In this document: in pieces, positions 4,784-58,729 of the stretch
Numbering within the stretch: position 1 is the stretch's first letter
Layout: each line of letters begins with the position of its first letter
NCBI GenBank assembly: GCA_001600815.1
Contig: BCKZ01000019.1
Location: 124,001 to 188,000, forward strand
Length of the DNA: 64,000 nucleotides
Direction of reading: 5' to 3'
Source of the DNA: Alloascoidea hylecoeti
Taxonomy: Eukaryota
Program-made: the position numbers and the translations under genes
Notes under the pieces: model-generated
Told to the model about the DNA's origin: nothing
Database searches by the model: none
What the model saw: the letters and a program-made list of their open reading frames with translations, nothing else

Positions 4784-7089
4784 TGCAGTAAAAAAAGTAA
4801 ACAAATTGGAATGCTTTTATATAAATAATGGGTGGCAGCAGCACTGACTGTGCATAAAGTTTAATATATAATTTGTTGTAACTACCTAAATGGATTTTGG
4901 TGTGTCTTTCTAACTTATTAGTATGCATAATATTCTATATCATATGTAGGAATGACTTTATGTAATGACTGCTTTAAATTTAGTTCCGTACTCCTCTCTT
5001 TATAAGAGTTATAGGCGAAGGGAAGTCTTACTGTAGGTATTCGGAACACTAGTAATTTATTATAAAATATTGATCTTTTATTTGAGTGATTATAAGAAGA
5101 TATATATGGTAGAGAGTTTTGATCATGACATTGAGGCCAAGTTCTGCAGAACGATTGAATATAGTTCCTACTATGAGATTTATATAGAAATCGATATGAT
5201 ATTTCTTATATTTCTTTATGTTTATATATAATTATATGCATGCTCTTGATTCTTGGTATGACACTCTTGAAGTTTTCATCAACGAGCATCACTATAAATC
5301 AATTGAAATTCATAATGTTAATTAAACCGGTTTCTAATCCTGGTGAAACCATTAAAAGTTGGAATGTTTGGACGCTGGGTGGCGATTCAAGACTATCGCA
5401 ATGAAATGAGCGAAGTTGAGTGTGATACGACTAATTTCTGTATTAATTGAAACTGAGTATTGACCACACAAAAAATAAATTGAATAATAGGAAGATGAAA
5501 CATTAGAATAATGATAATCGGATAATTATTAGTTGACCAGATATTAGCACATGAATTTTCTAGAGCTTTTGGAAAATTATCCTCTCCTAATATTTAGAAC
5601 TCTACATATAACTTTTATAGCTAATTAAAAATTTTTTCTCCACCATTTAATATCTTATCGCAGTATTCCACATCTTACTTCATTGATTTTAGGTTTTTTG
5701 TTTGTACGCAACAGCCACCTGGTTAGAATGTGTTGTTGGATATATTACACTCTTAGAACAGTTCACTAGAGAGTCGATTGGCTTTTTAGTGCAACCGGGA
5801 GAACAGACACTTTGAACTTTATCATGTGTCACCCGATAATCGGCAGTTATGGCGCTAAAAGACAAACCTCATCATGAAGGCTGTTTTCACTAGATAATGA
5901 CGTATGACAGCAAAAAGCATCATTTCTATCTTTGTCTCTACTGACACAGAGATTTATCCAGTGTTGTTTAGAACCAACTAAAAACGATTTGGATTCTTTG
6001 AACCAAGGATTAGATGAAGACCCGAGGGTTATTTATGGAATGGATGTTCATGTGACAAACATCATTGGTGTGATGTGGAGATCCTCAAAAAGCCTGATTC
6101 CCCACCTGAATATTATGTGTTAGGCACAAGCCGCGAGACTTGTACTGAAGAGTGCGGGAAGCAAAACAACCAGATCCGTTTTCTTATAATAGAAATTCAT
6201 TAAAGAAAGGTAGAAGAGGTAAATCTGAAATTCTCTATGAGACACATCTTACCTTTGACCCAAGTATGAAGAATTCATAATATTAAGTAGAATTGATATT
6301 TAAATTATTTAGCTTTTAGAATAAAATTGGTGATCATGTAACTTACACTTTGGGTGTTACGAAACTTTCCCGATCTTATAGTGTATAATTATGTTTTGAT
6401 AATTATAAGCTATTCTCGTGATTGATTTATTTTAGACCCCGTAATTGATATTAAATAAGTAATTCATCACTATGTTATAGTCAGTTCAATAATTAGTACT
6501 ATGATAGTAATATTGAACTAACTTATATGCCTGCATATGCACAGTTCCGGAATCATTGTACTTGCATAACAGTATCCATTTATGGAATTATCCAATTGTA
6601 ATGAATACTCCATCTACAACGAAACCTCAAAAAATAATACCAAACAGTTATATTCAATAAATAGAATAAAAATATATAATTAACATACGTAGCTAAGTAT
6701 AACATATCAATCTATCTATCTCTATGATCATTTGGATGATGATCGATATCGATGCTTGTGAAGTTGTGCTCTTTCTCGTTAGATATTCCCTTTTTGATAA
6801 ATTTCATTAAAAATTTGAAAGATAGAGGCCGTCTATTATTCATTTTATGAGCCTTTTTTTACTTAATTGTATCATTTTTTTGAATTACAAAAGTTTGTCG
6901 ATTTCCTACCATTTTTTGGATTAAGAATCCATCCTACCAATGAAAAAATTCAACTTTAATATGTCCAACTCATAATCTATGTGGTGAAAAAAAGTTTAGG
7001 TTTTGTGTTTCTTATACATATCAATGATATATTCTTTGACGTTTAGTGTATTTGTAATTTAAGAAATGAAAAATAATAATATAGTAAAA

Positions 7090-7340
7090 GTTTATATTAA
7101 ATGGGTTAGTGATATCCTGTATAACGATTGTTAACACAGCTGTGTTAATATACAATTGTATTTTTACTGATAGAGGGCCAATTGATATTTTTAAAATGAG
7201 ATCATGAAATGATTACAACTATTATAAAATTATATCTACAGATTAAGTAGTAAGAAAGCAAACAAAGAACAGATATTACTCAAAAATGTTACCTTGACTC
7301 CTCACTGATTCCTCAAAGGATTAATATGCAAGAGTGGTTA
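7090..7340 (+). mobile_element. Dispersed repeat family A, copy 1 (probable decayed solo LTR)
   Basis: Shares blocks in order with 26570..26920: atatcc..aacgattgttaa..ctgtgttaa.atac.attg, aactattataaaa, aaagga...atatgcaag. Confidence 0.55.
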
Positions 7341-8877
7341 TCGTTTGGAGTACATGAACAATTCCTATTCAACGTATCCTATATGTAGGAATTACAAAAA
7401 AAAAAAGAAGAGTGAGGATCTTGATTGTTGAGTTAAATGAAAGCAAAAATGACGATGGCTCCTAGTATTTCGAAAAAAATGTATTTTTCGAAAGATATCT
7501 CTCTGTAAAGTGTTTTTAAAATTGAATATAATGAAAGATTGAGATGAACTATATTTTAGAAAAGTTAAGATTTGAAAGTGAAGCAGAATGGATATGTAAG
7601 GATGAATTCCTATTTTCATATAAGTCATATATACCATTAACTAGTAATAATATACAATTATTAACCTTATTGAAAGCCGAAAGAATTACCCCAAAATACA
7701 TAATTGTATGAATTAAACTTAAAAAACTAGCATATACTGATTGGTATGGAAGTTGATATAAAGTAGCATTATATTGCCACTACCTATAAAAAAAAGTATG
7801 ACAAAATAAATATATTTCAGAATTCAAATGAACATTTTTACTTAGGACTCTTAATTAAATGATACTGATACCGTTCCAATAAAGATATAGAAAACCCGAT
7901 TTATTATTATATAAATCTGTTAATAAATTCTTTAATTTAAACATGACACATTTCTCTTTAATAATTTATTAAGTCCTAAGTATTCATAAGTCAATCATCA
8001 TTAATATTAGTAAAATTATTGAACAATAAAGTATTTTAGAACAAATTGAATTGAAAAACAACAATTATAATAACCGATAAATCTATAATCAAAGAAATCA
8101 TTCCAAAATGGTCTTAATTGAAATGAACAACTGAAAAGTTATTGCTATGCACAGTAAAAACATTTTCATTAAACTCATACATGGATGAATTGATAGCACT
8201 TCTTGACTTTAAAATGAGGATAAATTCAACGATAAATCCGGGTAACATGAGTACATCAATTACAAAGTTCTCTATGAGGAACAAATTTGAATACTTAAAA
8301 GCCAAAAAAACCTTGTATTATAAAAAGGTAGAGAATGGGGATGAGGTCGAGGATGTCTTTTATGAATTAGGAACATAAATGCATAAGATAAAGTCTGATA
8401 ACGTATAAAATAGTAATAATTTGCATTATCTAAGCTTAGATAGAGAGATAATTTGAACACGAGGCGCTTTTAATAATAACTATAATAAAATCATTTATAA
8501 TTATAGGATTTGATTCTTTAACTTTTAATAAAAGCCAAAACTTTTTAATGATTATTATGATGAGGTTTAATTTGTAAGAAATATATAGTATAAAGCATTA
8601 TATTTTATTCTCTATCTATAATTATGAGTAAGTATAGCACACTACATATCGATCAATTAAAATCGCAAACAAAATTATGTTTAAATATTACCTATAGCTA
8701 TACTTAATTCAATTATAATATAATTAAACCAACTTCAATATTAATTGTAAAAAAATGAAAAAAAAAAAAAAATTGAAAAAAAAAAAAGAGTATTGAAATA
8801 ATAAAATAAATTATAGCTATATGAAAAAATGAAAAGAAAAAAAAAAAAAAAACAAAAACATTGAAAATATAAAATCA

Positions 8878-8885
<8 letters not shown>

Positions 8886-8911
<26 letters not shown>
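8886..8911. repeat. (TA)n microsatellite within a poly(A)-rich tract
   Basis: Direct reading; flanked by long A runs at 8750-8940. Confidence 0.9.
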
Positions 8912-8916
<5 letters not shown>

Positions 8917-9279
8917 GAATTGATAAAAAAAAAAAATCTCATTCCTTCCTTCCTTTTATTATTATTCCCTTTATTAACATCTTATGTCCCTCAATTATAA
9001 CATTGTATTTTATCTTATGAAATCTTTTTGAATCTCTTAATCTTTCTTTTTTAAATTAAATTAAATCAAATTTTGTTTAAATGAAATTGATTAACATTAT
9101 AATGCTATTATTATTTATTTATCAATAATTAATTTAGTTAGTATAATTAGCTAAAGCCCCCTATATTATATCCCAACGCATTTTCAAATCAATGCAAATT
9201 CAAACAAAATCAAATTAAAAAAATTCATAAAAAAATTCATAAAAATAAAGAAATATCAATCACTTTTTTCCTTTTAATT

Positions 9280-9523
9280 NNNNNNNNNNNNNNNNNNNNN
9301 NNNNNNNNNNNNNNNNNNNNNNNNNNNNNNNNNNNNNNNNNNNNNNNNNNNNNNNNNNNNNNNNNNNNNNNNNNNNNNNNNNNNNNNNNNNNNNNNNNNN
9401 NNNNNNNNNNNNNNNNNNNNNNNNNNNNNNNNNNNNNNNNNNNNNNNNNNNNNNNNNNNNNNNNNNNNNNNNNNNNNNNNNNNNNNNNNNNNNNNNNNNN
9501 NNNNNNNNNNNNNNNNNNNNNNN
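9280..9523. other. Assembly gap (244 N)
   Basis: Run of n in very AT-rich homopolymeric sequence. Confidence 1.
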
Positions 9524-9562
9524 TTTTTATTTATAATTGATGAAAATATTTATAATGAAATA

Positions 9563-9594
<32 letters not shown>

Positions 9595-9689
9595 GATTTT
9601 TAAAAATAAAATATGAAATCAATAAATAAAAATAAATAAAAATAAATAAAAAAAAACCCTTTAAAAATATTGAATATTGAATTTATTAA

Positions 9690-11025
9690 TTAATGTTTTC
9701 TTCTTCTACCAAAACCAAATAATTTTTTCTTTTCTTTTGATTTAGTTTTACTTAAACTTAAATTTTTTTCATCATTTAAAACAATTGGAATAGATTTTCT
9801 ATTTTCAATTTCAATTCCATTTGAAGTTAAATTATTACCATCATTTAAAATAATAGGCATTGATTTTCTATTTTCATTAATATTAATATCAAATTCTAAA
9901 ACAGTTGAAGGAGTTGTTGAATTAGTACCATTATTTAATTGATTATTATTACCATTTGAATTTGAGCCAGAACCAGAACCAGAACCAGAACCAATTGATG
10001 ATGAATTATTTGAACTTGTACCAATTGGAGAAATTACAATTGATTCATTAATATTTGAATTTCTTAATTGTTGTTGTTTTTGTTGTTGTTGATTTAATGG
10101 AATATTATTTCCATTAACATTTCCATTTGTATGTTTAAATGGTATCATTGGTTGAGTAGTACCACCATAAGATTTATGTTTTCTATTATTACTAATTAAT
10201 GAAGCTTGATATTGATAATTATCATTTTGATTACCATTCATTTGATTAATTTGATTCATTTGATTCATTTGCATCTGATTATTAAACATAGGAGAAGATC
10301 TTCTTTTCCCTTGAACAATTCTTTGTTGTTGTAATGATTGTGGTTGTTGTTGAGAATTATTTCTTTGAATTGATAATCTTCTACCAGTATCAACAGAACC
10401 ATATCTATCACTAGTTGTACCTAAATCAACAATTCCTAAAGAATTTAAATCTAAATTATTATTAAAATCTCCTGAATTATCATTAATATTTTTTAAATTT
10501 GGATCATAAAAGTTAAAACTTCTTTTAACATCTGTATAACTTTTACTTCTATTTTTATTACTAACAACTGATCCTCTATTTGATTTATTGTTATTATAAT
10601 TCATTAAAGAAATTGAATCATGACGATGTCTTCTACCAGTAAATGACATAATATCAAAATTTTTAGCTTGTTGTGGTGTTAGGATTGGTAATGTTGTTGA
10701 TATATCATTTGATGTATATTGTGATTGTGAAATTGATGGAGCTCTTGAATAATCATTTTGATTTTGATTTTGATTTTGATTTTGATTTTGATTTTGATTT
10801 TGATTTTGATTTTGATTTTGATTTGTTGGTGTGAAATAAGATTGTTGATTATTTGTTGATAAATAACCATTACTATTACCATTTTGAGTTTGAGGAGATG
10901 GAGTAGATTGATATTGAGATAATTGTAATTGTAAATTATTTAATTGTTGTTCTTTTTGATTTAATAAAATTTCTCTTTTATTTAAAAAATCTTCTTTTTC
11001 TTTTAATTTTTCATTTACATCATCA

Positions 11026-11072
<47 letters not shown>

Positions 11073-12242
11073 TAAGTCATTTAAAATTTTTGGAATTAAA
11101 AATAAAGATTTTTTTAAATAAATTAATTGATATTGTTTTAAAATAATATAAAAAATTTCTAAATAAGGACAATTTAAATTAAATTCATCACTTTTAAATA
11201 ATATTGATAAAAAGGATAAATCAATTAATGGATTTAAATTATTAATTAAATTATATTGTAATTCATTTGTTAAAGAATTTAAATTTAAAATTAAATTTTC
11301 AGAAGATGATGAAGATGATGAAGATGATGATGATGATGATGATGAAGATAATGATTGAATTTTTAAAGATAAAGAATTTAAATCAATATTTTGAAAATTT
11401 GTTGATGATTTTAAAATTTTTTCTTTTAAATCTTTTAAAGTTAAATTTGAATTTAAATTTGAATTTAAATTTGAATTTAAATTTGAACCATTAATTTTTT
11501 GATAAATATTTAATAATTCAATTAATAAACCATTAAATATTGGTTTTAATAAGATATTTTCTTTATTCTTATGTTTTTGATGACTATTTTCAGTAGAAGT
11601 TGACAAAAGGATATTTTTTAAAAAAGGAATTGAAATTTCAAAAATAGTTGATAATAAATCAATTGATAATTTTGGAATTAATAAGTCAAAAGAAATTTTA
11701 GAAAAATCCGATTGGTTTATCAATCTTGTTGGTATACCATTATTTGACAAATTTTCAACTAGTTTCAAAAGTAAAGGGGTAGTTGATTCATAATTGATTA
11801 TAGAGGAAATGTAGATTTTAGTGTGGGAAGAAATTAGAAAACAGTTGTGGTTTAAATACCTGAAGTCCGAATCCACCAAAATCAGATAGAACTGGGATTT
11901 CGGGAGTGATTGTTTTTGGACCTTGGAGATTCGGTCCAAGACAATGGAATTTAGGCCGATGGAATGGTTGGCCAGGATCAGGACCAGTTCAGCATCCGCG
12001 TGCAAGCCGGACAGGAGGGAGCCGAGGTGGAGCAGGGAGGTGGGGGCCAGCAGCGTGAGGGAGGAGTCGAGCGCGAGGGTCGTGTGGCAGTCGAGCGAGG
12101 GGGAGATCCACGTGACGGCATCGCGAGGCTGAGCAGCGTGGCGGACGGGGGCGCCGCGGACGGGCGGGGGCGGGGGCGAGGGCGAGGGGAGACAGTGGGA
12201 GCGGATGAGGGTCGCCGGCCCGCTTTCTTGGTCAAACCGCAT
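9690..12242 (-). CDS. Hypothetical 850-aa protein: folded-looking N-terminal half, a coiled coil, and an N/Q/S-rich disordered C-terminus with a basic tail
   Basis: Uninterrupted 2.55-kb ORF in AT-rich DNA. Coiled-coil EKLKEKEDFLNKREILLNQKEQQLNNLQ; ends KKKLFGFGRRRKH. Family not recognised, and the start in the GC-rich part is uncertain. Confidence 0.8.
10755..10820. repeat. (ATTTTG)11 coding microsatellite (QN dipeptide repeat)
   Basis: Direct reading. A poly-Asn (TTA)n run also lies at ~11028-11072. Confidence 0.95.
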
Positions 12243-13220
12243 CTCACACAGGACGGCCGGGTGTTCAGATTAAGCGAGAGAAGAAGTTGCGACGAGGAAG
12301 AAAGAGAGCGTCGGCCGGTAGTAGCGGGCGCACACCCACACACCCACACCCCCCCGCCTCCTATAAAGGGCCGCTTGTACTCCCATCCTCCCGTTCCAGC
12401 ACACAACCACGCTGCTGGCGTCGTTCCCCGAGTGGAGGAACTGGATGCCGCCCTCCCCGCGCACGGACCCCAGCCGGCCCGCGCGCGTGGGTGCGACCGT
12501 GGGACAGCAACGCAGCGTGTATCTCCGACCTTCGATCTGAGGACAGGAGACCGTCGGTCATAAACGTCGCCACATTCTAAAAGTTTTCGCTCGGGAGCCG
12601 GTGCTTCCGGAGTACAACAGTACAGTATTTTAATTATCTATCCTCGCTATCTATTCCTCAAAGCTCCTAATGCTCGCGGGGGCAATGGCCCTGATGCTCG
12701 CCAGCGTGTCCAGGCTGTACCTCCGGCTCGTGAACTGCGTGCTGCTGGCCAGCGTGATCACACTAGCGTCGTCCACCCCCGCCCCCGTGCCCGCCCCCCC
12801 GTGCCCGTGCCCGCTCCCGCTGTTCATGATGCTCGTCGTGTAGTGCGTGTTGAACGTGTTGAACGTGTTGAACGTTCCGTAGGTGACCTGCGTCAGCACC
12901 GTCGGCGACGTGGATGCCCCATCGTTGGAAAACAGGGACAGCGATGTCGACTGTGTCACCGTCGACGAGGCTAGCGAATTGCTCGATTTGTTCGATCTTA
13001 TCGAGTTGGTTGTTGAGCGGTTCATATTTTGATTGTTCGCAAACGTCAACGGCAGTAGCGATGAGTTATAGTTATATCGAATCGATCGAGATCGTGTTGA
13101 GTTATGTGATATTGATGGCGTCGGCTTATCTCCGTTCGCGTTCGCGTTCGCGTTCGCGTTCGAACTCGATTCTGCAATTTTATTTATATTGGATGTCGAT
13201 GTCGATGTCGACGTTTCTGA
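11930..13220. other. GC-rich island spanning the 5' end of one gene, the intergenic region and the 3' end of the next gene
   Basis: Hand counts: 12121-12180 is 51/60 G+C, versus 4/60 at 11041-11100 in the same ORF. Confidence 0.95.
12332..12344 (+). promoter_or_regulatory. Rap1-consensus / C1-3A-like site ACACCCACACACC
   Basis: Matches the S. cerevisiae Rap1 consensus ACACCCRYACAYM; ~90 bp upstream of the 12242 ATG. Binding is inferred. Confidence 0.4.
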
Positions 13221-14780
13221 CGTTGATGATGATGATATTGATGACGTTTTGATTTTAATCCGATTGCTCTTAAATGATTGTCCATTATGTTCATTTGATG
13301 ATGATGTGGATTCTTTAAACTCTGGTTCGGTTTCTGTTTCTTCTAATGTTGATGGTGATGATTGTTTACATAACATTTCTCCAAATGTAACACTCCTTGG
13401 TGTTTTAACATTACTTGACTCGTCTTCGTCTTCGTCTTCGTCTTCTTTTTCTTGTTCTTGTTCTTTTTCTTTTTCTTTTTCTTTTTCTTTTTCATTTTCA
13501 TTTTCATTTTCTTTTTCATTATGTAAAATATTTGTTAGTTTTACTGTTTCTTCTTTAACCTTTAATTTCTTATCATTTTCATTCTCATCATTACTATCAC
13601 TATCATTATCATCATCATCATCATCATCTTTATTAAATGATTGTCTTGCACTAACAAAACTTTTATTATTACTTGTACTCCATGATAAAACACTAGTAGT
13701 ACTCAACTCTTCTAAAGATTTTGATCTTTTCCAGCTTTTTCCAAGACTATAATCATCCCTTCCATCTTCAACATTTTCATTCTCTCCATCATCACTTTGA
13801 TCACTTTGATCATTATAATTCCTAATACTATTTGAGTTATTATTCTTATCATCAATTATATTATAATTAAATAATGGTAATGTTGAACATTGTGATTGTG
13901 ATCTTTTAAAACTTGGTGGTAAATTTGATGATCCATAAAAAAAATCTGTTGAAATTTGTAATTGTTCTGGTGAATAAAATAATTGACTTTGATTATTAAA
14001 ATCATTATCATAATCATTATCATATAAATAATCATAATCATTTTCATTTTCATTTTCATTTTCATTTTCATATTCATTTTCATATTCATTTTCATTTTCA
14101 TATTCATTTTCATATTCATATCCATGATTATGGATTTGTTTTTGTTTAATTAATGTTTCATCTTTTGCCTTACCTTTATTATTATTATTCTTATTATTAT
14201 TATTAATATTATTATTATTATTATTCTTATTATTCTTATTATTATTTTTATTATTATTATGATGATGATGCTTATTATTTTTAATTTTTGTTTGTTTTGT
14301 TTGTTTTCTTGATCTTGATTTATTCTTAATTGGTTTTTTAATTGACTGTTTTAAAAAATTATCATTTAAATGAACTAAATTTGAACTGCTAAATGATTTT
14401 GGAATTTGAATTTGATTTATATTCCCATTCTTATTACCACTTTCATTTTCATTTTCATTTTCATTTATATTTATATTCTCATTTGTATTTATATTTGATG
14501 TTGACGTTGTATTAAAATCAATAGTATTCTCAAGATTATAAGAATGATGATTTATATGTGAACGACGAGTTACTTTTTGTGTATTTAAATTACTTGAATT
14601 TGATACTAATTTCCTAACCCATGAAAATCGACCTCCTTTAACTTGTTGTTGAGGTTGTCCTTGACCTTGATTCCCATTCGGATTTGTAGTTACATTTGAA
14701 TGTTGATTTGTTGGCGATGAATGAGGATGTTGATGTTGAGAATGTGGCTCAGTTGGACTTTTATGTTCAAAGTCAGGCAT
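12651..14780 (-). CDS. Hypothetical low-complexity fungal protein (~709 aa) with N-terminal RFSWVRKL and C-terminal DDASVITLASS...SLDTLASIRAIAPAS motifs
   Basis: Long ORF; first ATG at 14780 (ORF-track start 14849 is TTG). From memory, the C-terminal motif resembles an uncharacterised ascomycete family (ASI.TLASS...S.DT.AS.RA.AP); not verified by search. Confidence 0.82.
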   Translation of the reverse strand: MPDFEHKSPTEPHSQHQHPHSSPTNQHSNVTTNPNGNQGQGQPQQQVKGGRFSWVRKLVSNSSNLNTQKVTRRSHINHHSYNLENTIDFNTTSTSNINTNENININENENENESGNKNGNINQIQIPKSFSSSNLVHLNDNFLKQSIKKPIKNKSRSRKQTKQTKIKNNKHHHHNNNKNNNKNNKNNNNNNINNNNKNNNNKGKAKDETLIKQKQIHNHGYEYENEYENENEYENEYENENENENENDYDYLYDNDYDNDFNNQSQLFYSPEQLQISTDFFYGSSNLPPSFKRSQSQCSTLPLFNYNIIDDKNNNSNSIRNYNDQSDQSDDGENENVEDGRDDYSLGKSWKRSKSLEELSTTSVLSWSTSNNKSFVSARQSFNKDDDDDDDNDSDSNDENENDKKLKVKEETVKLTNILHNEKENENENEKEKEKEKEKEQEQEKEDEDEDEDESSNVKTPRSVTFGEMLCKQSSPSTLEETETEPEFKESTSSSNEHNGQSFKSNRIKIKTSSISSSSTSETSTSTSTSNINKIAESSSNANANANANGDKPTPSISHNSTRSRSIRYNYNSSLLPLTFANNQNMNRSTTNSIRSNKSSNSLASSTVTQSTSLSLFSNDGASTSPTVLTQVTYGTFNTFNTFNTHYTTSIMNSGSGHGHGGAGTGAGVDDASVITLASSTQFTSRRYSLDTLASIRAIAPASIRSFEE

Positions 14781-15599
14781 TTTTAAAAAGTGAATGGTAA
14801 GAAGAAGAAAAACAAAATGTAAAAATCTAAAACCAAAATTTACATACAAACTTTACTTTAGCGTAAAAAAATGTAAATCTTACAACATCATTTATATTTT
14901 TTTACATTTTTAATAAATAGTTTATTTTTATTGGGTGGACTTGTTTTATTTTGAAGGCTGTTTTCATTTTCATTTTTATTTTTATTTTTATTTTCATTTT
15001 TATTTTTGTTCTGTAAATAAAGGGGTGTTTTTTTTTCTTTCTATTTGTACGTTTATTTTTGTTTGATGATGTTTCTTTTTCTTTTTCTTTTTCTTATCTA
15101 AATCTTATATATTTTTTTTTTACCTTGTATTTGGGGGGGAATGCATCTTCATTCTGGGGAAAATCATGGTTTAATTCATTCTTCATTTCCAAGTATATTT
15201 ATAGTATACAACAAGTAGATAAACAAATATTTAAACAAGAAGATTCGTTTCTTTTCATCTTTATCATTGATCAACATTCAAATTATGAGAATGCTTATTA
15301 TATATAGGTTCTTGATAAAGTTTCGGTAAGTGGGCAAACAACCATCTAGCATAATCGAGATAATCAAGGTAATCACAGAATAAAAGATATCAATTCTACT
15401 CCCTCATCTACACAATTATCTTTTCTTAAACGTGTGTAGTATTAAATACAAGGTTATTTAGAGAAGTTGCTCACTCAAAATCAATATTTACTAAAACAAC
15501 AAACAACCAAATATGAATATATATTCTGTTTATAGAAACTACTTATCATAATACAAGTCTCATATACTCTCGTTTGTTTTCTGTTCAAAATTGAAGTTG

Positions 15600-18500
15600 T
15601 TCTTTTTTGATCTTATTTTTACACATCAAGTACAATAAGGTTTCCCTCTTGTGAACTTTTTCTCGTTGGTTGGATTTTTAATTGAATTTCTTTCTCTTTT
15701 TTCCTAGTATATATTCTATTATCAAGAGAGACTCCCGTTTAAAAATGTCGATGGTACTGTTTGCTTGATGAACTTTAAATCTAAATCTAGATCTAGAACA
15801 ACTCTCCATTTGCATATTCTTTAAATGCTTTATTAATATTGAGATTAAACATACATAAATTTAAACTTCTAGAACCGCTAAAAAAATCTGTCATACATAT
15901 ATTGAATAAATACTATTTGTTGAAGTTATTGTTATGATGTATGTATAAGTATCGAACAATACATAAATGTTCATGTTTTGAATCATAGCTAACAAGTTTA
16001 TTTATGGTGGAACTAACATCCTATGGAGAACCATATAAATTACTATAGATCTAAATCGAGAGTATGTTCCCTCTACCTTGTTATTGAGAATCTTATTCAC
16101 ATAATGATGTGTTATAGCATCCAGCAGATTTCTAGTAGTTTTTTTTTTTTTTGTGAACATTGAATTCCTGTAATTATATTTTAAAATTTTACTTTTTAAA
16201 TAATTGGTATGTTTAAATAATATGGTATTTTGTACCCGAATCGAGTGGCCGTATGACCCGCTGTACTAGGTGTATTTCCGAGTGGCGAAATTCTCTCTAC
16301 AAAACGGCGAATTCTGAATGGAAAAATATATACTCCTCATCTGGATAAAATAAAATATAAAAAATATATCACTTCTTTTAGCAAACGGGAGTGCCTAATT
16401 TGATCAAGCTATTGATTCCAGTGATCATATCATTTTGAATTGTGTTGTTGTATTAGAAGTACTAACTATCTTGATTAGTCATCCAGGGGTTTAAACATTC
16501 TCCTTCTTCTCTCATCTATTTTATTTTATCCTTCTTTTGGCACAGATTAGAACATCATCTACGTAATTGAGATTTTGACTTTTTTGTTTTAGAATATGCA
16601 TGGCTCCAAAATGTTATAACACAGTCTAAACTTCTTTGACACTTCAACAGGCTCATCCATATGAGATTTGTTTTAAAATACAATCATCCGTTGAATGTTC
16701 AGTTGAGCCGCATCTAAAGCAAAGTTTGGGTTTAGAATCTTTATAATCAATTCCTGTATTGGATTGTATTCTATTATATTTTAAATGGTGAAAGTGTGGG
16801 GTTCTAGATAACTTCTTATATTGTGAACTTTGGGATAATAATCTTATCGATATTAATGATGATTTTTACCTTATGAACACTCAGGATTTTTTTTTTTCCT
16901 TTTTTTCAATTAAAGGAAAATGATTCATGTTTAAATTAAAAGAATTAGTTAACAGATTTATCTGATAATAAATCGAGTTTTCTATCTTTTTTTTAGAAGT
17001 TTCATTTTAATTAATAGTCTTAAGTAAAATATTGTTCATTTGAATTCTGAAATATCTTTATGTTTATGTTGCTGGTCTCCTATAATAATACTAATTTATA
17101 GGTAGACACACATATAATACTATATTATATCAACTTCTATAGTAATCTATATTCTTTTTTTTTTGAGTTAACGTTTAATGCATATGGGTATTTCATTCGA
17201 CTTTCAATAAGGTTACTAATTAATATTTCATATTATTACATATAGGACTACCCTAAAACAAGCTTACTAGGTCAATCACCAACATCACAGTATGAATATA
17301 ACTAGATATCATATTCTGTATGTATAGTTAAACTACTTATCCTAATACGATCTAATAATATATGTTTATCTCAAGTGAAATAACTTGTCAACAGCAACCG
17401 TTGAATTTTCATTGAATATCTGTGTCTTTTCTCATCTACCTCTACTTAACTGTTTTATTCTATTTTCAAGAGAGATTAGGAGATTCCCTTTTAAAAGTGC
17501 TGTTTGTTGATGAACTTTAAATTTAGATTATACTTATTATCGCCACCAAAACATCTTATAAAATTGAGTAGACCTCCAAAACAAGATGATTAAATAACCG
17601 CTAGTTTGAATGAAAATTCAATTTGTTCACCGGTGAAATCAACACTTGTTAATACATCGATTAAACACTGTTTGTAGAACTCATCAGATAAAAAACTTCA
17701 TCGATAGTTGTAATTCATGATATAAATATGGACCGATACTTCTCACAAGTTTTATTTATAGTGTAATTAATATGAACAGAGCAAATACCATTTGATATAT
17801 ATATATAGTTTATAGAAATGGTTATGTTAAACTAAACTTCTCTGGTAGATTTTATTAACATTGAGTTCCTATATATTTTAAAATCATTTTTGAATAATTG
17901 GTATTTATATATGCTAAATCATTTTAAATAACAAGTTGAATGATATTTTCTTGCTACTGATAATAGTAATCACCATGGCCAAAATTACATGAGATTACTT
18001 ACCAATAAATTTTCACAAAAACACTTAAAGATCTAATATTCAAATTAGCTGTTAATTTATTGAAAAAGTATTAATTGACTTTATTCTTGTTACTTATTGC
18101 ACAAAAACAAAATATTATCCACAATTTCACCTAAAGTCTTATAAGATGACTAATATTAATATTAATATATATGATGTGTGAAAATTTAAGGAAAGAGACT
18201 AAGATACAACAAATATCAAAATGAAAACACAAACTCTCAGAATAAAATAAGGTATCTATCTAACCCCGCCGGTATACCCTTTAGTCGAAAACTTAATAAT
18301 CAGTAACCCAACCAAAAATGATGAACTCTCTCAAACGTGTTAAATACTATGTTCTTAAAATCTTTTAAAAGTTTCTTGATTGTTGTGAATCCTACATGGC
18401 CTAGTCTTTTGTTCACAATATTCCTTGATTTATTTATGGTAGACGATTTGATATACAATTGATTGCTTGATAACATATAAATATCTTATCGACATTGATG

Positions 18501-19390
18501 ATGATTTACTTACACTTAGCACTTAATTCACAGCCTTATTATCAAAGGGAAATGAGTCCTGTTTAAATTAAAGAATTAGTTAACAGATTTTATGTAATAA
18601 TAAATCGAGTTTTCTATCTTTTATTGGAACAATATCATTTAATCGATAGTCCTAAGTAAAATAATGTTTATTTGAATTCTGAAATATATTAATGACTGCT
18701 CTTCCCTATAGCTATACTCATAAGCAAAGGCGCACAATTTCTCACAATCCAACATATTATGCTACATTCTATCAACTTCCATAAGGCTTAGGCACAATGA
18801 TGCATATTTTTTCAGTTCAGGTCATACGATTGTGAGGTATTTCCATTGGCTTTCAATAACATTACTTAATATAAGTTATGTCACTACTACTCAAGATAAG
18901 GGTTGAAGTGACTACTCTGTTTTTACGAGTTCCTTTGTTTTTAATTCAAAGTTGGAAGGTTTCTTCTTTTTTAAGTGCAATAAGTTTCTCTCTTTCCGTA
19001 TCATCAAAACCGTTGGATCCTCTTCAAACATATTTGCCTCGCTTCTTCTACTCTACTCGATTCTCAATTTGTATTTAATAATGTTAATTGAACTGTTTGT
19101 TTGATGAACTTTAACTCTAGATCTAACGAAAACTCTCCATGTGCATCTTCAGTGACATAATCTTCAAATGCTTTATTAATATTGAGATAAATCAAGTTAT
19201 CTCCTGGTTCAATCAAATAATCCTCTAGAACCGCTAAAAAAATTCAGTTTGTCATCGGCTAAATCACTATCTGTTAATATATTGAATAAATACTATTTGT
19301 TGAAGTTATTGGATGAAAATTTCATCGACAGTTATGATGTATGTAGAAGTATCGAACAAACTAAATGTTCATGCTTTGAATCAAGATGGA
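15600..19390 (-). pseudogene. Decayed tandem array of ~3 units (~1.6-1.75 kb period) of an unidentified coding sequence
   Basis: Anchors recur: tgatgaactttaa at ~15766/17508/19102; aaatcgagttttctatctttt at ~16970/18602; aacattga.ttcct at ~16156/17857. The minus strand of the third unit reads ...AVLEDYLIEPGDNLIYLNINKAFEDYVTEDAHGEFSLDLELKFIKQ... with stops and frameshifts. Confidence 0.7.
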
Positions 19391-19399
19391 GGGAACATG

Positions 19400-19720
19400 T
19401 TTTGCTAATCATTTTGTTGGACATAAATGCAAGGTGGCCGAACTTAAGTGAGAAGCTTGAATACTATTACACCATGTGGGCGAGAGTAGCTTCACAGTTG
19501 AGTGACCATTATATTTGCATCGTGGTGGACATAATCGAGGAGACTATTCTTTATTTTGGCCGGGGTTTTCCATTAAAAGTCCATAAACCTCTCTAGGGTG
19601 ACAACACAGCCATTCTCAAATATTTCTAAAAGACGAGAAAGTATATCAACTCGCGGTTCTTTTTTGTAACTGCCGAATTTATCATATTATTACAGGTGAA
19701 GTTTGAACTGGGGTCTTCAG
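19400..19720 (-). mobile_element. Dispersed repeat family B, copy 1 (inverted relative to the copy at ~22880-23060)
   Basis: Its reverse complement shares gaagacc, cc.ccac..., tcgcccac, ttcggccac and caacaaaat in order with 22880-23060. Confidence 0.5.
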
Positions 19721-20124
19721 GTTAATGGGTACATGTTACAACCATCTTGTATGATACATTAACATATCTAGTAAGTCCATAAGTTAAAGCAAGTTTTCCT
19801 TTAAATATCAATCCATGAACTTTCTCAAGAATTCAAGCTTAAATTAAGTCGTGGAGTCTGTCATAAGCGCTTTACAAAATTTTGTTGACTATCCTCTTGC
19901 AAAATTGCGATCATATGGCATATCGGCTCTACTTCATGGATGTCCTAAGTATCCGCTACAAAAAAGTGAATGAAATTCGTTTATCAACATAGTAAATATG
20001 CGCAAAATAATAGGCTTCTAGATGTGTTGTCACATGACAAACCCCACCATGGATTTTTCTCGAAATATCAATCTGTCATCTTCTAGTTTATCTCAACACT
20101 TAATTTATATTTGGTATTTGAAGG

Positions 20125-21899
20125 ATGAAATTAAATATTTTAGGGATTTTAATTAGTTCAATTTATTTAAATTCTTACGTTTTTGCAATCGAAAGACCTG
20201 AATTCACAGTAAGTTCTTTTCTTACTCGCTTTTTCTTAATATATCTTTAATTTAATATTAATACTGAAAGTTTTAGCCACTTAACAATATAAAAGCACCA
20301 TTTTTTGAACAATTTTCAAATAAAATTAGATCTGAAAAGAAATGGATTCGATCATTATTTAAAGATAATAATAATAAAAATAATGAAAATTCATATAATG
20401 GGAAATGGAAAATTGAAGAACCAATAACTTATCCTGGTTTTGAAAAAGATTTTGGATTGGTTTTAAAATCAAGTGCAACAAAAGCAGCTATTAGCTATAA
20501 ATTACCTCAAGATTTTGATAATTCTAAAGATACATTAGTTTTACAATATGAAGTTAAAACGCAAAATGGTTTACAATGTGGTGGTGCTTATATTAAATTA
20601 TTAAGTGCTAAAGATGAAAAAACTGGGTTAACTTTTAATCCTGAAAATTTTAATGATGATTCATCATATCAAGTAATGTTTGGACCAGATAAATGTGGAT
20701 CAATGAATAAAGTTCATTTTATTATAAGAAGAAAAAATCCATTTACTGGTAAATATGAAGAAAAACATTTAAATAATCCACCAATGAGTAAATCAACAAA
20801 ATTAAGCGTTTTATATACTTTAATAATTGAACCTAATCAAGATTTTCAAATTAGGATTAATGGAGAAGTTGCAAAAGCCGGAAATTTATTAAATCCTAAG
20901 ATTTTAAAACCATCTTTAGATTCAGAAGAAGAAATTGATGATGTTAATGATGTGAAACCAACAGATTGGGTTGAATTAAAGAAAATTAGGGATCCAAAAG
21001 CAATTAAACCAGAGGATTGGGATGAAGAGCAACCATATCAAATTCCAGACCCCAATGCAGTAAAGCCAAACGATTGGGATGAAGAAATGGAGGAATATAT
21101 TAGTGATCCAACTGCAATTAAACCTGATTATTGGAATGATGAAGAAGATGGAGAATGGATTGAACCTGAAATTTATAATCCAGAGTGTGAAAAGCATGGA
21201 TGTGGTATTTGGGCCCGACCAACAATTAAAAATCCGTTATATAAAGGTAAATGGAAAGCACCATTGATCCCTAATCCTGATTATAAAGGAGAATGGGAAC
21301 CACGAAAAATCCCAAATCCTGATTATTTTAGAGATAGAACACCATCAAATTTAGAACCTATTGGAGGTATTGGATTTGAATTATGGACAATGGAATCAAA
21401 TATTTTATTTGATAATATTTATCTTGGACATTCAACTAAAGATGCAGAATTTATTGGTAATAAAACTTTTTTACCAAAATTAAGACTTGAAGAGGAAGAT
21501 GCTAAAATAACGGCACCAAAACCTAACATTGAACCTGATTTACCACCAACTGATGGACAAGAAAAAGAAGACGAACCATTCTTTGATATTTTAAAGCTTG
21601 TTTTTAAAGAATTTATTGAAGATTTAAGAGCATACTATGTTAAATTTCAAATTGATCCAATTGAAACAGTTACAAATGATCCAATATCTGGTATAACGTA
21701 TGCAAGTCTTGCTCTGGGAACATTCACATTCACTTTTGGGATAGTTAGTGCTATTTCATTTTTGATTGGGAATGGGTTTCAAAGGATTTCCGAACAGACT
21801 CCTGCTACAAGGACTACAAGGATTGCAAGTAAGGAAGGTACTAGTACTGGTAGTAGTAGTACTGGGAGTACAAAGGTATCGAAAAGACGGGTTATGTAA
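20125..21899 (+). CDS. CNE1: Calnexin; join(20125..20208,20277..21899)
   Basis: Signal peptide MKLNILGILISSIYLNSYVFA in exon 1; GTAAGT..TAG intron. Motifs QYEVK...CGGAYIKLL and VMFGPDKCG, P-domain KPEDWDE and GxWxxPxIxNP repeats, C-terminal TM helix. Confidence 0.97.
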
Positions 21900-56204: not shown

Positions 56205-57071
56205 TTATTTAAATGAGTCCCATTCCCATTCTCCGTTATTAACAAAATCATTTTGAGTTTCAATGAAGCTCAATCCCTTACCCGGACCTTGAGCAGCTGG
56301 AGTATCAACGAAAATTAAAAATTCGGAAGGTTCTTTCAATCCTCTTTTATATACTTCATTTGCTATTTTGAGTTGTTCTTCTAATGGTAGAACTGTAACT
56401 TCAAGTTTCTTACCAGTTGACTTCTTATATAGATCAATAAAATGTCTCTTTGGTAATAGAGCTGAATTGAATAATATCTTATCAGGAATTGTTGATGGGT
56501 CCTTTGAAATAACACTTGCAATAACTTTCCCGATATCTGAAAGCGATGAGAAAGAAACAGGGTAATCTTCTTTCCCAATTAACGTATATTTACCTGATGA
56601 GAATAAAAAGGCATTTTCTCCCAGATAAAAGTCTGCAAATAAACCACTTTTTAATAACACTGTTTTTAACCCACTAGCACGAGCTGCTTCGTAATGTGAT
56701 CTTTTACCATCGTAAATTTTAGCCCAATCGCTATTCTCATAATCGGTACCAAATTCCGAAGGAATATAAAGCTTAATGTTACTTTTAATTGCAGATTTTA
56801 AGAGGTTATCCCAATTGGAACCAGGACCTGAAATGTTGACAAGGACATCAGCACCTTTCAATGCTTCAGTTAGTTCCTCAATGGATGTATTTGGAGCAGC
56901 ATAGTACTTTACTTGATCAGTATCTTTTACCTTTGAAACATCTCTAGTAATAACACGAATTGGGAAAGTAAATTTTTTAGCGAATAAAGNTGAAGTAATT
57001 GCTGAGATAGTAGGTTTTCCCAAGAATCCATTAGCACCAAAGATTGCAACAACTGGTTTGTAAGAGGACAT
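56205..57071 (-). CDS. NmrA-like / isoflavone-reductase-like NAD(P)-binding oxidoreductase, copy 1
   Basis: VAIFGANGFLG Rossmann motif, ALKGADVLVN, YIPSEFG, K in DGKR; one N at 56990. Confidence 0.9.
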   Translation of the reverse strand: MSSYKPVVAIFGANGFLGKPTISAITSXLFAKKFTFPIRVITRDVSKVKDTDQVKYYAAPNTSIEELTEALKGADVLVNISGPGSNWDNLLKSAIKSNIKLYIPSEFGTDYENSDWAKIYDGKRSHYEAARASGLKTVLLKSGLFADFYLGENAFLFSSGKYTLIGKEDYPVSFSSLSDIGKVIASVISKDPSTIPDKILFNSALLPKRHFIDLYKKSTGKKLEVTVLPLEEQLKIANEVYKRGLKEPSEFLIFVDTPAAQGPGKGLSFIETQNDFVNNGEWEWDSFK

Positions 57072-58725
57072 TTTATTTCAAGTATAATTATGATTTTGTA
57101 TAGAACTTTTTAGAGTCAGAAAGATAATTGTTAAAAAGTAATAAAAGTAATAGTGATATTAGTCCTTTTATATATTTGTCGACTATATAAACATTATATG
57201 AGCATTAATTACTAATTATTTAAGTATATTGATCATTTTTAAAGCTTATGTGATTATTTGTAATTGGATATGCATGCAGGAACGAACAAAGTATTGGGCC
57301 ATACTTCTAGTTTCTCTAAATTTAGTTAATCAATTAAAGCTACCATGTATAAAATATCACTTGGTGTCAAATAAACGAAATATCTTTCGGTATCGCAAAT
57401 ATATAACTTCGGTAAAGAAAAAGAGAAGCAGTAGCTCCACGACGCAAATACTCTCAAAAGAGTTTAGACTCTAGATCTATGATAAATAAATATTAACGAT
57501 TGACAAAAAAAAAAATTCGTAATCAAAGGACTCGATGAGATGATTATCAATTTGTATAAGCTTAATTGGAGATTTCACAGTTACTATTGTTTAGCATATG
57601 CAATCGAAATAATATTTAATTAAGGAATATGCATGGCTGTGCAGAATAATGCATACAGAGATAGATTATAAATATTTATATAAGCAATATTAAGCATTAC
57701 AAATGATGAATACGCAAATAAGTAATGTTTATATAATGTTAAAATATGTAGTCGACAAATATATAAAAGGACTAATATCACTATTACTTTTATTACTTTT
57801 TAACAATTATCTTTCTGACTCTAAAAAGTTCTATACAAAATCATAATTATACTTGAAATAAAATGTCCTCTTACAAACCAGTTGTTGCAATCTTTGGTGC
57901 TAATGGATTCTTGGGAAAACCTACTATCTCAGCAATTACTTCANCTTTATTCGCTAAAAAATTTACTTTCCCAATTCGTGTTATTACTAGAGATGTTTCA
58001 AAGGTAAAAGATACTGATCAAGTAAAGTACTATGCTGCTCCAAATACATCCATTGAGGAACTAACTGAAGCATTGAAAGGTGCTGATGTCCTTGTCAACA
58101 TTTCAGGTCCTGGTTCCAATTGGGATAACCTCTTAAAATCTGCAATTAAAAGTAACATTAAGCTTTATATTCCTTCGGAATTTGGTACCGATTATGAAAA
58201 TAGCGATTGGGCTAAAATTTACGATGGTAAAAGATCACATTACGAAGCAGCTCGTGCTAGTGGGTTAAAAACAGTGTTATTAAAAAGTGGTTTATTTGCA
58301 GACTTTTATCTGGGAGAAAATGCCTTTTTATTCTCATCAGGTAAATATACGTTAATTGGGAAAGAAGATTACCCTGTTTCTTTCTCATCGCTTTCAGATA
58401 TCGGGAAAGTTATTGCAAGTGTTATTTCAAAGGACCCATCAACAATTCCTGATAAGATATTATTCAATTCAGCTCTATTACCAAAGAGACATTTTATTGA
58501 TCTATATAAGAAGTCAACTGGTAAGAAACTTGAAGTTACAGTTCTACCATTAGAAGAACAACTCAAAATAGCAAATGAAGTATATAAAAGAGGATTGAAA
58601 GAACCTTCCGAATTTTTAATTTTCGTTGATACTCCAGCTGCTCAAGGTCCGGGTAAGGGATTGAGCTTCATTGAAACTCAAAATGATTTTGTTAATAACG
58701 GAGAATGGGAATGGGACTCATTTAA
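56209..58725. repeat. Inverted repeat: arms 56209..57185 and 57749..58725 (977 bp), spacer 57186..57748
   Basis: Paired positions sum to 114934 throughout. Only one difference was noticed by eye (56736 vs 58198, synonymous GAG/GAA), plus the same N in both arms. Confidence 0.97.
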
Positions 58726-58729
58726 TTAG
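57863..58729 (+). CDS. NmrA-like / isoflavone-reductase-like oxidoreductase, copy 2
   Basis: Translation identical to copy 1 except the last residue (N vs K); N at 57944. Confidence 0.9.
   Translation: MSSYKPVVAIFGANGFLGKPTISAITSXLFAKKFTFPIRVITRDVSKVKDTDQVKYYAAPNTSIEELTEALKGADVLVNISGPGSNWDNLLKSAIKSNIKLYIPSEFGTDYENSDWAKIYDGKRSHYEAARASGLKTVLLKSGLFADFYLGENAFLFSSGKYTLIGKEDYPVSFSSLSDIGKVIASVISKDPSTIPDKILFNSALLPKRHFIDLYKKSTGKKLEVTVLPLEEQLKIANEVYKRGLKEPSEFLIFVDTPAAQGPGKGLSFIETQNDFVNNGEWEWDSFN

Follow-up and report, generated by a model that had tools for sequence, protein, structure and literature searches.

We analysed a GC-rich island in a 64,000-nucleotide stretch of the Alloascoidea hylecoeti genome (the window) and found that it is one of many sharp GC peaks centred on promoters, which are accompanied by a zone AT-richer than the genomic background (the moat) and by a strand skew mirrored about the peak centre. 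Position, symmetry, amplitude, moat, skew and recurrence in the genome are direct observations. The peaks are probably caused by GC-biased gene conversion (gBGC) at stable promoter-type Spo11 hotspots; mutagenesis during break repair would account for the skew and the moat. The source assembly comprises 24.8 Mb in 136 contigs, and the GC content of the window is 30%. The gene content of the window is that of a budding yeast (Skp1, calreticulin family, catalase, Atg2). The top named matches of the glutamate synthase of the same genome were Geotrichum reessii (82%), Kuraishia capsulata and Candida boidinii (81%), with Magnusiomyces and Nadsonia (80%) among the further ones.

The GC core extends from 11900 to 13200 and has its centre at about 12453, where silent-site GC is about 0.9; half-height is reached 550–650 bp from the centre. 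GC per 100 bp rises from 0.17 (11601) to 0.78 (12101), stays at 0.48–0.74 up to 13000 and is 0.21 again by 13501. The best 600-bp segment has a GC of 0.68, about 8 SD above the 100 other 600-bp bins of the window (mean 0.30, SD 0.044, maximum 0.40). The initial annotation had described a steep GC contrast within one reading frame, and our counts agree: in the frame at 9690–12242 (ORF A) the richest 60 bp (at 12140) have 86.7% GC, whereas the poorest (at 11028) have 3.3%. Both frames were said to stay open, as they do (9690–12242, minus strand, 850 aa; 12651–14780, minus strand, 709 aa, ORF B; 408 bp between them), and the described grading of their third positions was also found. Per 30 codons, GC3 is 0.87, 0.87, 0.90, 0.63, 0.50, 0.20 and 0.03 in ORF A, and 0.17, 0.23, 0.30, 0.50, 0.60, 0.77, 0.97, 0.93 and 0.80 in ORF B. 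In 150-bp steps from 12453, silent GC is 0.86, 0.92, 0.66, 0.32, 0.08 and 0.02 in the 5' end of ORF A, and 0.88, 0.94, 0.69, 0.46, 0.24 and 0.12 in the 3' end of ORF B. The two decay curves are nearly the same, with a drop in silent-site GC from about 0.9 to 0.02–0.1 within 900 bp on each side.

The peak straddles the 408-bp intergene at 12243–12650 (GC 0.56–0.74 per 100 bp), which had been described as a promoter. It is the promoter of ORF A, but because the genes are in tandem it is also the terminator of ORF B, and GC dips to 0.48 at 12601–12700 near the ORF B stop. The proposal that coding microsatellites change type at the island is only partly borne out: AACGCG (13133–13163), ACATCG (13192–13209) and GAAGAC (13420–13445) repeats are present, but the last lies outside the island. 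An E-box, CACGTGAC, at 12109–12116 inside ORF A, which we take to be Cbf1-type, belongs to a motif enriched in peak cores. A G-quadruplex-type motif occurs at 12162–12189 on the plus strand, the strand running into the peak, and two more on the minus strand, all three being pattern matches. The promoter also carries a CA-rich tract followed by a TATAAA-like word (12331–12367, plus strand), a putative functional element; the CA tract (12331–12355) is presumably telomere-like or Rap1-like. Most other cores have 0–2 of the CA-tract words, and thus the tract has no role as a shared determinant. The plus-strand ORFs at 11964–12563 and 12914–13252 are taken as putative stop-poor shadows of GC-rich DNA. 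Rfam gave no match over 4800–20700, and an RNA run matched the window only in short repeat-level pieces that have no bearing on expression.

ORF A, whose 5' end lies within the GC core, had no Pfam or NCBIfam match and no homologue in our searches; homologue searches with ORF B, a low-complexity protein whose 3' end lies within the core, were also empty. The atlas score of ORF A for ApbA was 0.82, a value that shuffled proteins reach one third of the time. Its comparison with three of the four ApbA proteins of the genome gave a single 28-residue match of 1.1 bits, and its single-sequence predicted fold had a pLDDT of 36. A Svl3/Pam1-like ApbA-fold protein is a candidate identity, as a lead only. 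For ORF B, the atlas lead was to ascomycete hypothetical proteins (0.79–0.81). After the first Met of ORF A, the next does not occur before about residue 530, and there may be an intron near its start.

The island had initially been treated as singular, which does not hold. We defined a peak as a 600-bp segment with GC of at least 0.5 and studied about 0.86 Mb, made up of 564 kb in three contiguous regions and of 30 targeted loci of 10 kb each. Twenty-six peaks were called: the contiguous regions gave 5, and the remaining 21 came from 21 of the targeted loci; the other 9 loci, picked for long G/C runs, had no such 600-bp peak and were left out of the set. Because most peaks were located via long G/C runs, strong peaks are favoured in this sample; the peak of the window is the joint highest of the 26. 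Strong peaks occur about once per 110–280 kb (2 unselected, 5 in total, in 564 kb), and long G/C runs were matched on many contigs. Of the 5 contiguous-region peaks, 3 were known beforehand, so that by extrapolation the genome total is probably of order 100–200 peaks.

Gene context was read by eye from the gene calls. It was divergent for 12 peaks, tandem for 9 and convergent for none; of the other five, four adjoin a gene start on one flank while the opposite flank has no called gene, and one is unclear. Convergent arrangements thus account for 0 of 26 peaks compared with 30 of 107 neighbouring gene pairs (p ~0.001), and every resolved peak is in contact with a promoter. In the set of 26, GC at four-fold sites declines through 0.79, 0.63, 0.34, 0.16 and 0.07 in genes running away from the peak, and through 0.74, 0.56, 0.32, 0.17 and 0.13 in genes running toward it. 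Two-fold sites rise as four-fold sites do, and non-coding GC within 400 bp of the centre is 0.52–0.57 against 0.31 in the background. CpG observed/expected is 0.89 in cores and 0.69 in the background. The flanking genes are mixed (kinases, transcription factors, RPS4, catalase). In 68 long genes, 5' GC3 and body GC3 were uncorrelated overall (ρ = −0.09), and a low-GC body was limited to the strongest 5' peaks. No dispersed repeat lay inside any sampled core, so that repeats were unusable as a neutral marker. We also considered centromeres and rejected them, because contigs carry several peaks each, amid ordinary genes.

The low GC values against which the island was initially compared do not represent the genome background; they come from a local AT moat. 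The left moat (8400–11750, silent GC 0.00–0.05 in ORF A) is interrupted by an assembly gap at 9280–9523 (244 N), which lies beside long A and T runs; the right moat is at 13450–15000 (silent GC 0.00–0.12 in ORF B). Among the 26 peaks, four-fold GC past the first kilobase in genes running away is 0.07–0.11 out to 4–5 kb, compared with 0.19 in the background and 0.17–0.19 deep in long genes. The median silent GC per gene is 0.07 at 1.5–4 kb from a peak (59 genes) and 0.21 in 87 background genes (p = 2 × 10−13). Higher peaks have AT-richer flanks (ρ = −0.68; 24 peaks with 500-bp GC of at least 0.45 in the contiguous regions). The share of sequence occupied by perfect microsatellites is 2.4% in moats, 1.2% in cores and 0.27% in the background, with 0.74–0.23% in background bins at 24–28% GC. 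Amino-acid usage tracks GC too: GARP is 0.31 in cores, 0.16 in moats and 0.19 in the background.

Strand skew was calculated at four-fold sites 100–800 bp from the centre, excluding repeated codons. In genes running away from the peak, the GC skew is −0.32 and the AT skew −0.17, negative in 23/25 and 23/27 genes with enough sites, respectively. Genes running into the peak have +0.30 and +0.24, and both skews are positive in 7/8 genes. The background values for the last 170 codons are −0.09 and −0.08 (p = 0.002 and 0.0006). The counts in the window are C44:G21 for ORF A, and G40:C12 and A16:T2 for ORF B. The outward strand is pyrimidine-rich (62%, background 54%) and the inward strand purine-rich (63%); the asymmetry therefore consists mostly of transversions. 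In non-coding DNA the outward strand is C-rich in 22/22 peaks tested. The four-fold skew jumps by about 60 points at the centre, and the all-base skew dies away over about 2 kb. The mirror is imperfect: at 1.5–3 kb the AT skew is +0.20 in genes running in (8 genes only) and −0.04 in genes running away. Smagulova is said to have seen, in 2011, a purine/pyrimidine flip at mouse hotspot centres, the inward strand being the one with purines.

To follow the direction of change, we compared homologous DNA, which appears to gain GC in cores and to lose it in moats, as judged from paralogues and orthologues. Of two STE-domain paralogues, one aligns within a core and the other on a shoulder; W/S differences between them favoured the core copy by 68 to 22 (p = 1 × 10−6). 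Two genes on peak flanks, a catalase and a member of the tRNA-synthetase family, were AT-richer than their paralogues (55:80 and 9:27). At GLT1 sites that are A/T in both fungal outgroups, G/C is found here at 10/33 in codons 1–250 and at 10/341 in the body (p = 7 × 10−7), the outgroups being distant and probably saturated. Shared G/C sites are kept at 15/25 in codons 1–250 and at 4/126 beyond. The 5' GC3 of GLT1 is 64 and 56% here and 54–56 and 46–50% in the outgroups. Since these outgroups are remote and their 5' ends equally GC-rich, the comparison shows a higher local equilibrium and not a dated gain; and since GLT1 is barely above them, part of this moderate peak may be retained and not gained. 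Amino-acid polarisation of GLT1 together with 64 other proteins gave 2 derived sites in the core and no acceleration in the moat. The initial annotation had suggested polarising AT>GC substitutions with orthologues; our searches returned none for the two genes at the island, and the strain differences are unpolarised. Among the listed differences between a wood-decay metagenome (X4) and the reference, the unpolarised W>S/S>W counts were 6/0 in the shoulder (11794–12056), 0/3 in the moats and 11/4 in the background, leaving out the paralogous-repeat rows common to sample X1 (described below). The shoulder differed from the moats at p = 0.012 and from the background at p = 0.28.

A recombination hotspot with gBGC had been proposed for the island from the start. 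This explanation is one that we infer, and it fits 0/26 convergent peaks, the symmetric sub-kilobase decay, the rise of all site classes and the presence of SPO11; the AT moat and mirrored skew had been missed. gBGC alone explains neither, because it is strand-symmetric and predicts neither a skew nor a moat. The peaks behave as hotspots should in that they lie in divergent or tandem and not convergent intergenes, decay symmetrically over a conversion-tract length regardless of gene direction, and raise all W/S classes (two-fold, four-fold and non-coding); the genes for meiotic breaks and mismatch repair are present. In our reading, the tandem promoter would have long been a strong hotspot of meiotic double-strand breaks, centred at about 12453, and the island would be the footprint built up there. 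Spo11 would cut the open promoter in each generation. Heteroduplex would then reach about 0.6–0.9 kb each way and be repaired toward G/C, raising silent and non-coding GC against strong AT mutation pressure, which would imply a population-scaled bias B of about 4–6 (log-odds of 0.92 against 0.19 or 0.03). The mirrored skew could stem from transversions that fall unequally on the two strands, either on resected single-stranded tails or during repair synthesis, and error-prone repair over a wider zone of 3–5 kb could leave the AT-rich, microsatellite-rich moat. The steps for skew and moat, proposed by analogy with the mutagenesis of mammalian hotspots described below and with the mouse purine/pyrimidine flip, are the least secure of the cutting, biased repair and mutagenesis that we infer. 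More tentatively, the peaks may be a three-layer fossil record of meiotic break repair, with a core of about ±0.7 kb, skew to 1.5–3 kb and a moat to 3–5 kb. The core might then correspond to heteroduplex with a mammal-like conversion bias, the skew to resected-tail damage or repair synthesis, and the moat to error-prone repair.

We searched the genome for the proteins concerned. A SPO11 domain is present, and there are six MutS-family loci, some of them intron-split. The glycosylases comprise one Ung1-type UDG and Nth-, Ogg1- and AlkA/Mag-like HhH proteins; MutY and TDG-type repair genes and an unusual GC-favouring glycosylase were not found in the genome. The repair genes found explain no strong GC repair bias. 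No PF00145 match (C5 methylase) occurs in the genome, whose assembly may be incomplete. The SPO11-domain match (L082) lies opposite ORF pieces resembling an AAA-ATPase gene. Among 180 hexamers of the same composition, CACGTG ranks top in cores (29 sites), and it is a promoter mark and not a sufficient cause. Five CACGTG sites, four of them spaced 18–37 bp, occur in one divergent promoter core at L008, ~4860–4970.

Several other explanations were weighed against hotspot conversion. A foreign insertion, contaminant or chimeric assembly, which had been argued against at the outset, is largely refuted and has a negligible probability. It could draw on the facts that neither ORF A nor ORF B protein has a detected homologue and that the sole listed contig across both edges, from X1, may stem from the assembly's own sample. 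However, the edges are graded inside open frames, and the X1 contig covers 11458–13413 with 0 differences at a depth of 25, compared with 20–22 for its neighbours. A second sample of the same organism (X3) has a contig across the left edge (11359–12042), and X4 has one inside the island (12369–13130) with no substitution; among the contigs listed, no independent one crosses the right edge. Parts of the island are therefore present in two other strains. The 26 like peaks also lie over ordinary conserved genes, such as GLT1 and RPS4. Abrupt edges, broken frames, a change of depth and absence from other strains were all not found. It is also improbable that the peaks are efficient replication origins whose skew reflects leading/lagging-strand asymmetry. 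Komagataella has origins at GC-rich promoters, and a spacing of about one strong peak per 110–280 kb would suit origins. The skew changes sign at the centre and would place C on the leading strand, in keeping with yeast origins (PMC3459929), and the bidirectional asymmetries of human CpG islands have been attributed to origins (PMC2817419). However, the accessible part of PMC3459929 gives a leading strand rich in A and C for S. cerevisiae, K. lactis and C. albicans, and a GC-skew jump of about 9% at S. cerevisiae origins. The outward strand here is rich in T and C, its four-fold jump is about 60 points and its all-base skew fades within about 2 kb, so the sign of the TA skew, the size and the range mismatch. 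Origins would also leave the 1-kb GC core unexplained.

A non-meiotic local mutational process at open, bidirectionally transcribed promoters, creating or preserving the GC core and the skew, is unlikely; R-loops or G-quadruplexes, uracil/abasic-site bypass, or protection from deamination would be candidates. It would agree with the contact of every resolved peak with a promoter, with the C-rich outward strand of non-coding DNA in all 22 peaks tested (background coding strands share the sign weakly), with the G4-type pattern matches in 18/26 cores and CACGTG in 17/26, and with outgroup GLT1 5' ends that are equally GC-rich. However, such a process must bring all W>S classes, transitions among them, up to 0.9 and must extend to the same degree into the 3' end of the gene upstream; 42 of the 47 CACGTG sites in the contiguous sample are outside GC-rich DNA, and the flanking genes are mixed. 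Selection that keeps promoters and gene ends GC-rich, for chromatin, DNA structure, mRNA structure or translation, seems very improbable. The promoter location and the enrichment of CACGTG and G4 motifs would accord with it, but the rise is smooth with distance and blind to gene boundaries and orientation, amino-acid usage is altered by the GARP values above, and GC3 of RPS4 goes from 0.6 to 0.0 within 261 codons.

gBGC at hotspots is a process already known, of which the present peaks, given their amplitude, moat and skew, are probably an extreme variant far beyond baker's-yeast measurements. Marsolier-Kergoat has described, in the available part of a 2011 study (PMC3020949), a GC3 decay at gene ends of S. 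cerevisiae and Candida, attributed to conversion tracts that start from meiotic breaks in intergenes, together with a model of decay from break-bearing promoters. GC3 is likewise highest beside the intergene and falls into both genes, but that decay is an average over gene classes, while single loci here go from about 0.9 to 0.02 in 900 bp; the sub-background moat and mirrored skew also set our peaks apart from it. Lam and Keeney (10.1101/023176, seen in part) reported that Saccharomyces Spo11 hotspots lie in divergent and tandem, not convergent, intergenes, form a continuum of strengths and are stable enough for a footprint to build up. Those hotspots are known by their breaks, and gBGC measured in S. 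cerevisiae tetrads is about nil (50.03% to 50.62%, in the accessible portion of PMC9129041), whereas our peaks are known from sequence alone; the tetrad values make an implied B of 4–6 striking. In the parts available, Polak and Arndt (2009, PMC2817419) showed that human CpG islands are likewise promoter-centred, with a gBGC signature and an asymmetry that flips at the island. Unlike them, the present peaks occur with no C5 methylase match and have a local, not long-range, asymmetry; they are not unmethylated islands in a methylated genome of the vertebrate type. Mammalian hotspots, according to the excerpts at hand, show GC>AT changes where DNA is resected (PMC5698624) and C>G changes where meiotic breaks occur (PMC9575207), a combination of AT-ward and transversion mutagenesis with gBGC that would resemble the present case. 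However, the mammalian GC>AT effect depends on methylated CpG and on short-lived PRDM9 hotspots, and the present one would have become fixed to an extreme degree in a yeast with no detected methylase. A literature search, with most subscription papers outside its reach, returned no budding-yeast description of such peaks with an AT moat, and the available part of PMC6701816 does not discuss such GC peaks. New here are the AT moat, the mirrored skew, and the apparent GC gain in cores and loss in moats between paralogues and orthologues.

Appreciable gBGC in fungi is disputed because the S. cerevisiae tetrad data show almost none. Peaks of 90% silent GC against a floor of 2–7% would make it directly testable at sites named in advance, and the moat and mirrored skew would allow the mutagenesis that accompanies recombination to be mapped alongside it. 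If our reading is true, this is a budding yeast with very strong gBGC, in which some 100–200 hotspots could be mapped from sequence alone and conversion has the strength to alter the composition of proteins encoded at gene ends. Near promoters of this kind, calls of codon usage, selection and gene starts would be misled in this genome.

Some further observations were made. Degenerate dispersed repeats (71–95% identity, 42 matches genome-wide) make up the gene-poor flanks of the peak in the window at about 7600–8000 and 15100–19500, and are partly inverted around it. The STE-domain paralogues are transcription factors at L073:3284-4975 and L077:2966-5176, on different contigs, and both adjoin GC peaks. 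A TPR and glycosyltransferase-41 gene resembling O-GlcNAc transferase is found at L073:5207-9268; to our knowledge, this family is absent from S. cerevisiae. A perfect inverted repeat of 984 bp, with arms 555 bp apart, holds two near-identical 288-aa genes (56205–57071, minus strand; 57863–58729, plus strand), which we take to be NmrA-like. Both genes have N at the same place, and the repeat could come from a recent duplication, ongoing conversion or an assembly effect.
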